64,000 bases of DNA, taken from positions 24,254 through 88,253 of the IMG/VR virus record IMGVR_UViG_3300011335_000826; one strand, given 5' to 3'. Positions 9,702-52,036 of this stretch are shown here, piece by piece. Source of the DNA: a virus (Duplodnaviria > Caudoviricetes). The translations under genes were made by a program, and so were the position numbers. Every line of letters begins with the position of its first letter. Within the stretch, counting starts at the first letter, position 1. Below the pieces are notes generated by a model that was given only the letters and a program-made list of their open reading frames with translations, had not been told where the DNA came from and did not search any database.

Positions 9702-9749
9702 GAAGTGTGCATTCGCACATTCTATCATTCACTAACCAAGGAGAAATCA

Positions 9750-10745
9750 GTGAAAAAACTCATTACCATGTTACTCGCAGTTGTTGCATTCGCAGCAACA
9801 GCACAAGAAATTACTGGAGCCGGAGCAACATTTCCGGCTCCCCTCTATGCAAAGTGGGCCAGCGAATACAACAAGGCCACTAACATCAAGATCAATTATC
9901 AATCAGTTGGTTCTGGTGCAGGTATCAAACAGATCGAAGCCAAGACTGTGACCTTTGGTGCCAGTGACATGCCGCTCACAGACGACAAACTAGCAGCATC
10001 GGGCTTGTTCCAGTTTCCCACAGCCATCGGTGGTGTGGTTCCTGTGATCAATGTCAAAGGCATTGAGCCCGGACAACTACGCCTAACAGGTTCTGTTATG
10101 GCTGACATCTTCTTGGGCAAGATCACCCGTTGGGATGATGCTGCTATCAAGGCATTGAACCCGTCACTCGCATTACCTGATCAAGCCATCACAGTGGTTC
10201 GCCGTGCAGATGGATCCGGAACAACATTTATCTGGACCAACTACTTGAGCAAGGTCAGTAAAGAGTTCAAAGAGACTATTGGTGAAGGTACTGCTGTGAG
10301 TTGGAAAACAGGGGCAGGTGGCAAGGGCAACGAAGGCGTTTCTGCTATGGTTCGCCAACTTCCAGGAGCATTCGGCTATGTTGAATTTGCTTATGTAAAG
10401 CAGACCAAGATGAACTGGGTTAATGTGCAGAATGCTGCCGGCACTTGGGTTGCACCTACAGAAGATTCTTTCAAAGCAGCCGCTGCCAACGCTGATTGGA
10501 ACAAAACATACTATCAAATCCTCACAAACCAAGCAGGCAAAGAAGCATGGCCTATCTCGGGTGCTACATTTATCCTTGTGCATGTGAAGCCAGGCGATGC
10601 TGCTGCATCTAAAACTGCTCTAACATTCTTTGATTGGGCGTTCAACAACGGTGACAAAGCCGCAGATGACTTGGATTATGTGGCATTGCCTCCGGCAGTC
10701 AAAGCCAAGATCCGTGCTGATTGGAAGCAGTTGGGATTGAATTAA
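9750..10745 (+). CDS. pstS: Phosphate ABC transporter substrate-binding protein PstS
   Basis: Signal peptide, ITGAGATFP, YQSVGSGAG, FGASD, RRADGSGTT, GKGNEGV, WPISGATF. GTG start after AAGGAG. Confidence 0.96.
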   Translation: MKKLITMLLAVVAFAATAQEITGAGATFPAPLYAKWASEYNKATNIKINYQSVGSGAGIKQIEAKTVTFGASDMPLTDDKLAASGLFQFPTAIGGVVPVINVKGIEPGQLRLTGSVMADIFLGKITRWDDAAIKALNPSLALPDQAITVVRRADGSGTTFIWTNYLSKVSKEFKETIGEGTAVSWKTGAGGKGNEGVSAMVRQLPGAFGYVEFAYVKQTKMNWVNVQNAAGTWVAPTEDSFKAAAANADWNKTYYQILTNQAGKEAWPISGATFILVHVKPGDAAASKTALTFFDWAFNNGDKAADDLDYVALPPAVKAKIRADWKQLGLN

Positions 10746-11695: not shown

Positions 11696-12070
11696 TTACT
11701 GTGCGGTCTTTTTTGCTCGAGGTTTTGCTGGTGCCTTGATCGCAGCAGGCTTCTTCACAGCAGGTTTGCGTGGCTTCTTCACTGGCTCGGGCACAACCAC
11801 TTTGGTCACAAAGTCAGGATTGCTGGTGCTGGTTGCCCATTGTTCAGGTGTGAGTTTGTGTAAGCCAACACAGTATCCTGTGGCACTACGACCGCAACCG
11901 CATTTGGGTGGCTCGTTGGCCGGAGTCAATGGAATCGGGGTTGTAGCAGCAGGTGGTTCCAACTTGTATGGTGCTTGGGGCACAGCGGGTGTGGTCACTG
12001 CATCCAGAGGATGAGCGTATTTGCTTTCGGGTTTCTTTCCGGTAAAGAATTCGACGATTTTCTTGAACAT
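11696..12070 (-). CDS. CDGSH-like Fe-S/Zn-finger protein with Lys/Ala/Pro-rich tail
   Basis: CGCGRSATGYCVGLH (CxCxxS...CxGxH), C-terminal KKPAAIKAPAKPRAKK. TATAAATA upstream. Confidence 0.6.
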   Translation of the reverse strand: MFKKIVEFFTGKKPESKYAHPLDAVTTPAVPQAPYKLEPPAATTPIPLTPANEPPKCGCGRSATGYCVGLHKLTPEQWATSTSNPDFVTKVVVPEPVKKPRKPAVKKPAAIKAPAKPRAKKTAQ

Positions 12071-12131
12071 GGGTGTCTCCTATGCTTTATTTATAACTGG
12101 GCACATTTAGGCAAAAAAATCTGACAAAAAG

Positions 12132-12178
12132 ATGTGCGGTCGCAGCATATTTTGCCGAACTTTGCTGCGACCGCACAT
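12132..12178. repeat. Perfect 16-bp inverted repeat, each arm a PhaR-like TGC-N4-GCA box
   Basis: ATGTGCGGTCGCAGCA (12132-12147), 15-nt spacer, TGCTGCGACCGCACAT (12163-12178), abutting TAAATA. Confidence 0.8.
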
Positions 12179-12199
12179 AAATAGTGTTACAATAGAACA

Positions 12200-12255
12200 T
12201 AGGATGCTGCATGGTGCGGGTCCTATAGTCTACTTGCTTATCTAAGGAGAAACCC
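12200..12255 (+). ncRNA. Structured 5' leader, ROSE-like, paralogous to the hsp20 leader
   Basis: UAGGAU(G)CUGCA-UGG-UGCGG-GUCCUA hairpin, then TAGTC-TACTTGCTTATCTAAGGAGAAAC, nearly identical to 2131-2159. Confidence 0.65.
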
Positions 12256-12537
12256 ATGTTCACAGCAGACACAATGATCGACACCGTTCAAAACAGTAAA
12301 AAACAATTCGTCAAGACTTTCGTCACCAACGAGCACATCGCCGAGTCAATGAATCATTTCATTGACACACAGGCTGAATACACCAAAAAGGCTTTCAAAG
12401 CTACCACAGATGCAGCCATAGAAATCATGCAAGAAACTCAAAAAGCCATGCGTGAAGCTGCCAAGTTTGACTACAGCAAATTTGGCGAAGGTATCATGAA
12501 AGCATATCAAGCCAATGGGAAGACCAAAGGAGCATAA
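12256..12537 (+). CDS. Phasin-like (PHA granule-associated) protein
   Basis: 93-aa amphipathic all-helical protein (IDTVQNSKKQFVKTF...FIDTQAEYTK). Upstream PhaR-like boxes support the call. Confidence 0.55.
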   Translation: MFTADTMIDTVQNSKKQFVKTFVTNEHIAESMNHFIDTQAEYTKKAFKATTDAAIEIMQETQKAMREAAKFDYSKFGEGIMKAYQANGKTKGA

Positions 12538-12538
12538 C

Positions 12539-12724
12539 ATGTTCACGAAATTGGGAGATTATTTCGACCGAGCGGTGCGTTGGTTTAGTGAGCCACAGCA
12601 TTATGGAACCAAACTGGAACAATACATCTTGTCACACAATCCTACCTCCACATGCCAAGTAGAAGCATTGGAGCGTAAGTTCGAGCTGATGTATTCGGCC
12701 CGCAACAAGAGTTGGATGATTTAA
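12539..12724 (+). CDS. Small hypothetical protein (DUF3563-like)
   Basis: LEQYILSHNPTSTCQVEALERKF. SD AAGGAG, ATG 12539. Confidence 0.55.
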   Translation: MFTKLGDYFDRAVRWFSEPQHYGTKLEQYILSHNPTSTCQVEALERKFELMYSARNKSWMI

Positions 12725-12960
12725 ACGGTAGAAAACAGTGGTTGACCACTAATCCGGTTCCTGCTATAATTACAGCATGGACCGGATTTTTTATGGATGC
12801 AAAGATGACACCAACTAGTTTTGTGATTCAACTACCTCGACAGCGCCGTCGTGCTGTGGAGTTGTATTCTCGCGATACTCCATTCCGTGGGCGGGTGGAG
12901 CAGAGCAAGGTGCGTTATCAACGCCGCCCTAAACATGTTAACCAAAGGCATGAACAATGA
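12712..12960 (+). CDS. Hypothetical protein (start uncertain)
   Basis: Fills the gap in the operon and is ATGA-coupled to the next gene. Confidence 0.45.
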   Translation: MDDLNGRKQWLTTNPVPAIITAWTGFFMDAKMTPTSFVIQLPRQRRRAVELYSRDTPFRGRVEQSKVRYQRRPKHVNQRHEQ

Positions 12961-51844: not shown

Positions 51845-52036
51845 ATGATTGATCGAGAAGCAGTAAACAATCGTATGGATGAACTCATGAAACCTATCGA
51901 TCGCCAGATCATGATGAGCGACAGCAGAGAAGAATTGCTGATGATAGCCTGTGCAATGATGCAACGCACCACTGAGATATTTGAAGCCGAACTCGGCGTT
52001 AACGGTAGAAAACAAATGTACAAGGATTGGGTATGA
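51845..52036 (+). CDS. Hypothetical protein
   Basis: ORF track, in operon. Confidence 0.65.
   Translation: MIDREAVNNRMDELMKPIDRQIMMSDSREELLMIACAMMQRTTEIFEAELGVNGRKQMYKDWV

Follow-up and report, generated by a model that had tools for sequence, protein, structure and literature searches.

Phasin genes are repressed by PhaR, which is titrated off by PHB granules. The locus described here raises the question of whether a phage gene can be placed under the same host regulator. The window, i.e., the whole stretch of 64 kb of viral DNA that was analyzed, contains a small gene preceded by a perfect 16-bp inverted repeat, and the original prediction read the repeat as PhaR-like operators and the gene product as phasin-like. 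The arms ATGTGCGGTCGCAGCA (12132-12147) and TGCTGCGACCGCACAT (12163-12178) are fully complementary and enclose a 15-nt spacer, exactly as had been claimed, and they form the longest inverted repeat of the window. Neither the window nor its source, an 88-kb IMG/VR contig with an estimated completeness of 26%, contains another close copy of the 16-mer arm. An independent 163-nt contig, obtained in a different study from a DNA run, is identical to 12064-12226 throughout, which shows that the repeat did not arise in assembly. In a further DNA run, X13, a contig of depth 6 joins 12093 to 12191, so that 97 nt with both boxes are skipped or replaced; this contig is probably from a co-occurring relative with another promoter module. 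The open reading frames on either side of the repeat diverge and no co-oriented gene ends between them, in agreement with the original view that the repeat lies between divergent genes and is not a terminator. The elements of the locus are:

11696..12070, minus strand: divergent 124-aa gene; the left box lies ~50-65 nt upstream of the likely transcription start at its putative promoter.
12132..12148: left box, ATG-TGCG-GT-CGCA-GCAT, a centre+1 ("N2") dyad of 17 bp; nucleotides 1-16 of it repeat the right box exactly in inverted orientation.
12149..12161: inter-box spacer, ..ATTTTGCCGAACT..; the box centres, at 12140 and 12170, are 30 bp apart.
12162..12178: right box, TTGCTGCGACCGCACAT, of the N2 type, over the -35/spacer region of the predicted promoter.
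12185..12193, plus strand: predicted extended -10, TGT-TACAAT, with the hexamer TACAAT at 12188-12193; TAYAAT in all aligned relatives.
12199..12226, plus strand: leader hairpin I, AUAGGA...UCCUAU, at the 5' end of the predicted transcript.
12232..12250, plus strand: leader hairpin II, in which ACUUGCU faces the Shine-Dalgarno sequence AAGGAG as a ROSE-like anti-SD.
12256..12537, plus strand: gene of a 93-aa all-helical protein from a conserved jumbo-phage family; candidate PHB-granule surface protein.
12539..12724, plus strand: 61-aa gene directly after the 93-aa gene, co-transcribed with it in a predicted operon.

For 36 non-redundant viral loci, the upstream regions were aligned, and ~57 metagenomic loci were added in a wider set of 93 non-redundant loci in all. 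The 36 viral loci display a fixed order of elements, where a 17-bp dyad box (ATGYTGC-N3-GCARCAT) is followed 5-9 nt on by the -10 element TAYAAT, in many cases preceded by TG, and then by a hairpin starting at the predicted transcript start, an ACUYGCUUA stretch, AAGGAGAAA and the ATG. The position of the box and the -10 are conserved in the viral and the metagenomic loci alike. The right box of the window stands at the position homologous to that of the canonical PhaR-type boxes in the relatives and ends 9 nt before the conserved -10, a position that is fixed in the alignment. It thus overlaps or abuts the -35/-10 region, as expected of a PhaR operator, at what is a predicted promoter. Transcription is predicted to start at ~12199-12201. 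The promoter had originally been placed at TAAATA; this hexamer is present (12178-12183), but the element common to all relatives is TAYAAT, here TACAAT, and TAAATA is unlikely to serve as the -10. If TACAAT is taken, hairpin I is as far from the -10 as it is at the putative hsp20 gene of the same phage, which has a perfect sigma-70 promoter (TTGACA-17-TATAAA, 2066-2094). The single boxes of the relatives are found in both orientations, as would be expected of a site for a symmetric dimer and not of a -35 element. In many relatives (L011, L016-L020, L022, L023, L027-L032, L034, L038-L042, and L045), the PhaR-type box is preceded at ~20-40 nt by another palindrome, TTAGTGA-N4-TCACTAA, which the window lacks.

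The identity of the box was explored by comparison with the operators of the host regulator. At phaP1 of R. eutropha, the PhaR footprints BS1 and BS2 are two boxes flanking the promoter, with the palindromic consensus YTKNTGCRNYGCANMAR, and the published criterion for a PhaR site allows up to three mismatches to it (PMC12849132). For Herbaspirillum (H. seropedicae), the footprint-confirmed motif of PhbF, which is described as a tetramer, is TG-N-TGC-N3-GCAA, and the Rhodobacter motif is quoted as CTGC-N3-GCAG (PMC3206438). The match of 7 of 8 positions to CTGC..GCAG that had been reported for each arm of the repeat is reproduced if the gap is set to 4 nt, whereas the 3-nt gap of the quoted Rhodobacter motif leaves only one matching half-site. 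In five Comamonadaceae-type genomes, the phasin gene (PF09361, 93-100 bits) always has two copies of (A/T)TGCTGCA-N-YGCAACA(T/A), one immediately before the -35 and one immediately behind the -10, at a distance of 58-59 bp. The PhaR footprints at R. eutropha phaP1 have this same layout, and the consensus also fits the PhbF motif. In a set of 31 Burkholderiales phasin promoters, from which L186 (G185, unpublished) was left out, 30 genes have at least one site with no more than three mismatches within 250 nt upstream, usually two of them that flank the promoter ~58 bp apart, and 74 sites were observed where 5.9 were expected.

The boxes of the related phages closely resemble these host sites. 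At the fixed position, 30 of the 36 viral loci have a box with at most three mismatches to the consensus. A matrix was derived from the host sites, which themselves score 8.5-24 bits (median, 20); canonical phage relatives score 18-22 bits on it. Over the wider set, 59 of the 93 phage upstream regions reach at least 16 bits and 11 more score 8.5-16 bits, placing 70 of 93 in the host range, with sites at -107 to -51 (median, -94), and none of 121 shuffled controls reached 16 bits. Host and phage boxes agree in their conserved positions (T2, TGC, GCA, and A16), and host L193 and phage L038 share an identical 17-mer box. The possibility that the box marks a general promoter class was ruled out, given that the motif is not in excess in the window and that the complete 340- to 350-kb relatives have 2-4 copies per genome. 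One canonical-type site elsewhere in the window, ATGATGCAACGCACCAC at 51956-51972, scores 16.1 bits but lies in a 63-aa open reading frame that precedes a clamp-loader-like gene; with 1 site observed and ~0.2 expected, it does not exceed chance, and it was set aside.

A search for the PhaR DNA-binding domain (PF07879) gave no match in four near-complete related phage genomes or in the contig of the window. The one clue to the host is PstS (9705..10745), which is 65 to 72% identical to Comamonadaceae proteins from Polaromonas, Rhodoferax, Limnohabitans, and Curvibacter and suggests this family as the host lineage. PhaR and a phasin are encoded in all five genomes closest by PstS, the single gene that points to the presumed host. 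Because the canonical boxes match the host consensus and the host phasin promoters, and because no phage PhaR was found in the genomes searched, a reading by host PhaR is well supported by comparison at the level of the family, and for the relatives with canonical boxes we consider such control very probable.

To this extent the original proposal of a host PhaR reading holds for the family; it does not carry over as such to the arms from which it was made. The two boxes of the window have 4-5 mismatches to YTKNTGCRNYGCANMAR and a 2-nt dyad centre, which places them outside the published criterion, and they score -0.2 bits (left) and 1.1 bits (right) on the host matrix. Compared with the canonical TGCR-N-YGCA, their core TGCG-AC-CGCA has one extra base at the dyad centre, so that one perfect PhaR half-site and the outer T/A positions are kept, with a 1-base shift of the other inner block. 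The same form is found as the only box in other phages: in L003, L005, L205, L208, and others, the 15-17-mer of the left box stands alone at the corresponding place of the promoter. The strict cores of the 93 phage loci are distributed as follows:

Canonical core (1-nt centre): 54 loci.
Centre+1 core (2-nt centre): 22 loci.
Neither strict core: 17 loci.
Both types together: 0 loci.

The centre+1 allele is nearly invariant in sequence, and the canonical boxes vary at their free positions. Among the 31 host phasin promoters there is no centre+1 core, versus 52 canonical cores, and a search of 151 host-family genomes for the exact variant 17-mer, allowing up to two mismatches, gave one-mismatch matches at about the chance level. 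One genome of this sample, G154, is unpublished, and like L186 it supports no claim made here. When L205-L253 are compared with positions 12100-12200 of the window, the box alleles and two -10 contexts (TGTTACAAT and CATATATAAT) alternate among phages with 94 to 98% identical proteins, which points to recombination of promoter modules. The boxes of the window are best read as a derived allele of the PhaR-type operator that has been duplicated, and the chances that PhaR or a PhaR-like regulator controls the window's variant boxes appear to us evenly balanced.

Other explanations of the repeat were weighed as well. The centre+1 allele may be no PhaR site at all and be read by another dimeric regulator, of the phage or of the host, or it may represent an escape from PhaR control; the two inverted copies would then be an operator pair for that other protein. 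The scores near 0 bits, the failed published criterion, the lack of the allele in the host phasin promoters, and the mutual exclusion of a nearly invariant allele and the canonical boxes are all in line with this. Against it, the allele sits exactly in the place of the canonical box, even in phages with 96 to 98% identical proteins, and it keeps a perfect PhaR half-site, the outer T/A contacts and the inner blocks TGCR..YGCA. Moreover, no alternative candidate regulator was found, and on balance we regard this explanation as rather unlikely. The repeat could also work as a nucleic acid hairpin, with a minus-strand stem followed by CUUUUUGUCAGAUUUUUUU that would act as an intrinsic terminator or insulator for leftward transcription before the divergent promoter. 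Folded as RNA, it reaches -30.4 kcal/mol (z = -5.1 versus shuffles), and a U-rich tract follows the stem on the minus strand. This shape exists on the minus strand but ends no co-oriented unit: no leftward gene ends there, as the flanking genes diverge, and the repeat was not listed by a consensus terminator scan.

The comparison with the relatives weighs further against a hairpin. About 91 of the 93 loci have a single box and no hairpin; the two-box layout is found in 2 of 93 only, the window and L245, whose protein is 80% identical and whose inter-box spacer is the same. In L003-L005, the homologue of this spacer is the sequence that precedes the single box. The left box of L245, ATGTGCAATTGCAGCAT, has three differences from that of the window, which preserve its own dyad (TGCA-AT-TGCA) and break the complementarity to the right arm. 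This indicates selection on each box as a protein-binding dyad and not on a long hairpin, and together with the single boxes that occur in either orientation it favors an operator pair over a function as an RNA or DNA hairpin, the latter being highly improbable in our view. A somewhat less remote alternative, although still improbable, is that the second copy arose by a recent neutral inverted duplication or gene conversion and has no function. The rarity of the layout would fit this, as would the lack of the exact two-arm pattern in any other IMG/VR contig and the clear shuffling of promoter alleles among near-identical phages. However, layout and spacer have persisted in L245 in spite of the divergence of the protein, the sequence is unchanged in independent samples, and the spacing of 30 bp between centres suits cooperative binding of a tetramer on the same face of the DNA. 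Conservation upstream of homologues, which the original prediction looked for in the repeat, is found for the single box at the same position in the relatives, whereas the 16-bp repeat as such is not conserved and its two-box layout is shared by L245 only.

Downstream of the operator pair, the predicted transcript begins with a two-hairpin leader. The original prediction had called it ROSE-like, and this is supported in part. Hairpin I displays compensatory double changes in 7 of 9 consensus pairs across the relatives and aligns to helix 1 of ROSE_3; one row of this alignment, L020, has wrong coordinates and adds noise only. In the region of hairpin II, ACUYGCUUA..AGGAGAAA is conserved in the relatives, and the hairpin is without covariation because both of its sides are invariant. 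Positions 12198-12261 align to the full ROSE_3 model of Rfam (RF02523, positions 1-69 of 69) with 26.4 bits. The same type of leader precedes the putative hsp20 gene, where 2100-2168 align over positions 1-69 of 69 with 24.1 bits; both alignments are below the gathering score of 43. Two features of ROSE elements were searched for. The UYGCU anti-SD opposite AGGAG is present in both leaders, where ACUUGCU faces AAGGAG, and a putative small heat shock gene, hsp20, follows one of the two. A ROSE-like thermometer is a plausible reading.

The family of the 93-aa protein is large: more than 749 clusters are obtained at 90% identity, and at 50% there are 199 representatives. All relatives are from metagenomes, and contigs of up to 350 kb show that jumbo phages carry the gene. 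Among 50,697 GenBank phage records, tblastn gave no match to the 93-aa protein, and none to a host phasin. The AlphaFold2 model has three helices with a pLDDT of 86, and a Foldseek search of the PDB returned nothing at an E value of 0.001 or below, as expected for a three-helix protein; a profile search of the PDB sequences matched designed helical bundles only.

Homology to phasins, as implied by the original term phasin-like, could not be demonstrated with phasin models. For the protein of the window, no Pfam phasin model matched at an E value of 1 or below, and the top match, TIGR01985 (E = 0.014), scored 15.8 bits against a cutoff of 99.7. In the relatives, PF09361 (Phasin_2) matched 14 of 50 at an E value of 0.1 or below (best, 8e-4), with 14.7 bits for the G001 homologue against a cutoff of 24.9, and TIGR01841 matched 5 of 50 weakly. 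Language-model features place Phasin_2 (0.89), PHB_acc (0.87), and PhaE (0.84) as the neighbors of the protein. All of the phasin matches are below threshold, alignment of the family with 31 host phasins by hhalign gave P = 0.068, and reversed or shuffled family members scored as high as the real ones on an HMM of these phasins. Because decoys do equally well, the recurrent matches are not counted as homology, and the resemblance is one of composition and amphipathic-helix character. The fold and profile comparison proposed at the outset was thus uninformative for the fold and stayed below threshold for the profiles. The label "phasin" should be dropped in favor of "phasin-like in composition only." The amphipathic character may nevertheless matter for binding to a polymer surface. 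The most plausible reading is an amphipathic protein that would act at the granule surface or in stress, and the main argument for a granule-related role is the regulatory context, i.e., the PhaR-type box.

The neighboring genes add to this context. Three complete relatives have a second conserved copy of the box ~50 nt upstream of a 55-58-aa gene, the homologue of 12539..12724. Members of this 55-61-aa family have their own canonical PhaR-type box in other jumbo phages (L059, 1316-1483, minus strand; L060, 1290-1466, minus strand; and L062), and so the two gene families share the box either as one operon, as in the window, or as two loci. In those phages the box is flanked by direct repeats, AGTAGAAACCA. 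The 61-aa protein is DUF3563-like by language-model features only (score, 0.86), and DUF3563 (PF12086) had no match in five candidate host genomes. On the other side, the divergent arrangement with the 124-aa gene is conserved in L001-L005 and L011. The 124-aa protein had no match in Pfam; its C terminus is a Lys/Pro/Ala-rich tail (..KKPRKPAVKKPAAIKAPAKPRAKK..) that we take to resemble the histone-like tails of the granule-associated PhaM and PhaF. Contigs from an RNA-seq "viral metagenome" and from two metatranscriptomes cover parts of 12305-12727, and their absence over 12023-12304 is uninformative. They do not count as evidence of transcription, since the libraries possibly contain DNA and the contigs come from relatives.

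Taken together, the observations can be brought into one explanation. The repeat would be two inverted copies of a 17-bp dyad box for a dimeric regulator, placed on and just upstream of a sigma-70-type promoter with an extended -10, from which a putative operon for the 93-aa helical protein and the 61-aa protein would be transcribed. The norm of the family at this position is a single canonical Burkholderiales PhaR box, by which host PhaR would repress the operon in the absence of PHB; once PHB granules form and titrate PhaR onto their surface, the operon would be released. In the window, the two weakened centre+1 boxes, 30 bp apart, would most likely be read cooperatively by one PhaR tetramer or by a PhaR-like regulator, and the ROSE_3-like leader, which is common to this operon and the putative hsp20, would add control at the level of translation. 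We give this explanation as a whole, with a PhaR-type operator pair on a jumbo-phage operon promoter, cooperative reading, and a ROSE-like leader, an even chance of being correct. Within it, binding of PhaR to the centre+1 allele, cooperative binding at the box pair, and binding of the 93-aa protein to granules are what we infer from the arrangement, and a mobilization of PHB by the phage protein would be purely conjectural.

Phages borrow the host regulators PhoB, LexA, and NtcA for the timing of their genes. If the present reading is true, a PhaR operator on a phage promoter provides a new input, namely, the carbon storage state of the host, conveyed by titration of the repressor onto granules. 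Literature searches found no published phage case of PhaR control. In its widest form, the idea is that of a "PhaR regulon" common in freshwater jumbo phages, where the 93-aa and the 55-61-aa proteins stand behind copies of the host PhaR operator and the gene of the former also has a ROSE-like leader. Such a regulon would sense PHB granules and temperature or stress and bring the phage's own protein onto the granules, and centre+1 would be a retuning allele evolved by the phages and spread through recombination of promoter modules. We put this forward tentatively, as a possible but doubtful generalization. Its subject is an abundant gene family that has no match among the GenBank phage records, and the occurrence of canonical and centre+1 alleles on near-identical genes is a natural experiment on operator evolution. 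Moreover, the PhaR idea is directly testable with the genetics of C. necator.

The locus can be set against four known systems. Like ROSE-type thermometers (ROSE_3, RF02523), the phage leaders have two hairpins, a UYGCU facing AGGAG, and an alignment over the full model; they differ in scoring 24 to 26 bits against the 43 required and in a helix 2 without covariation. With the phasins of PF09361 (Phasin_2), TIGR01841, and TIGR01985, which are the most recurrent weak matches of the family, the phage protein has in common that it is small, all-helical, and encoded behind a PhaR-type box, whereas at 93 aa it has half the length of the host phasins (~180 aa) and its scores are below their cutoffs. 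The boxes of the related phages share the conserved positions of the PhaR (PhbF/AniA) operators of the Burkholderiales and likewise overlap the promoter in the position of a repressor site. In contrast with those, they are on a phage genome and there is one box per promoter instead of two flanking it, and in the window the dyad centre is of 2 nt and not 1 nt and the box has an inverted duplicate 30 bp away, as judged by comparison of sequences. Finally, cyanophage pstS carries PhoB boxes and is a phage auxiliary gene under a host regulator. Here as there, the operator of a host nutrient-state regulator lies on a phage promoter; for the present locus, the signal would be carbon storage in PHB granules, read through titration of a repressor and not through a two-component activator.
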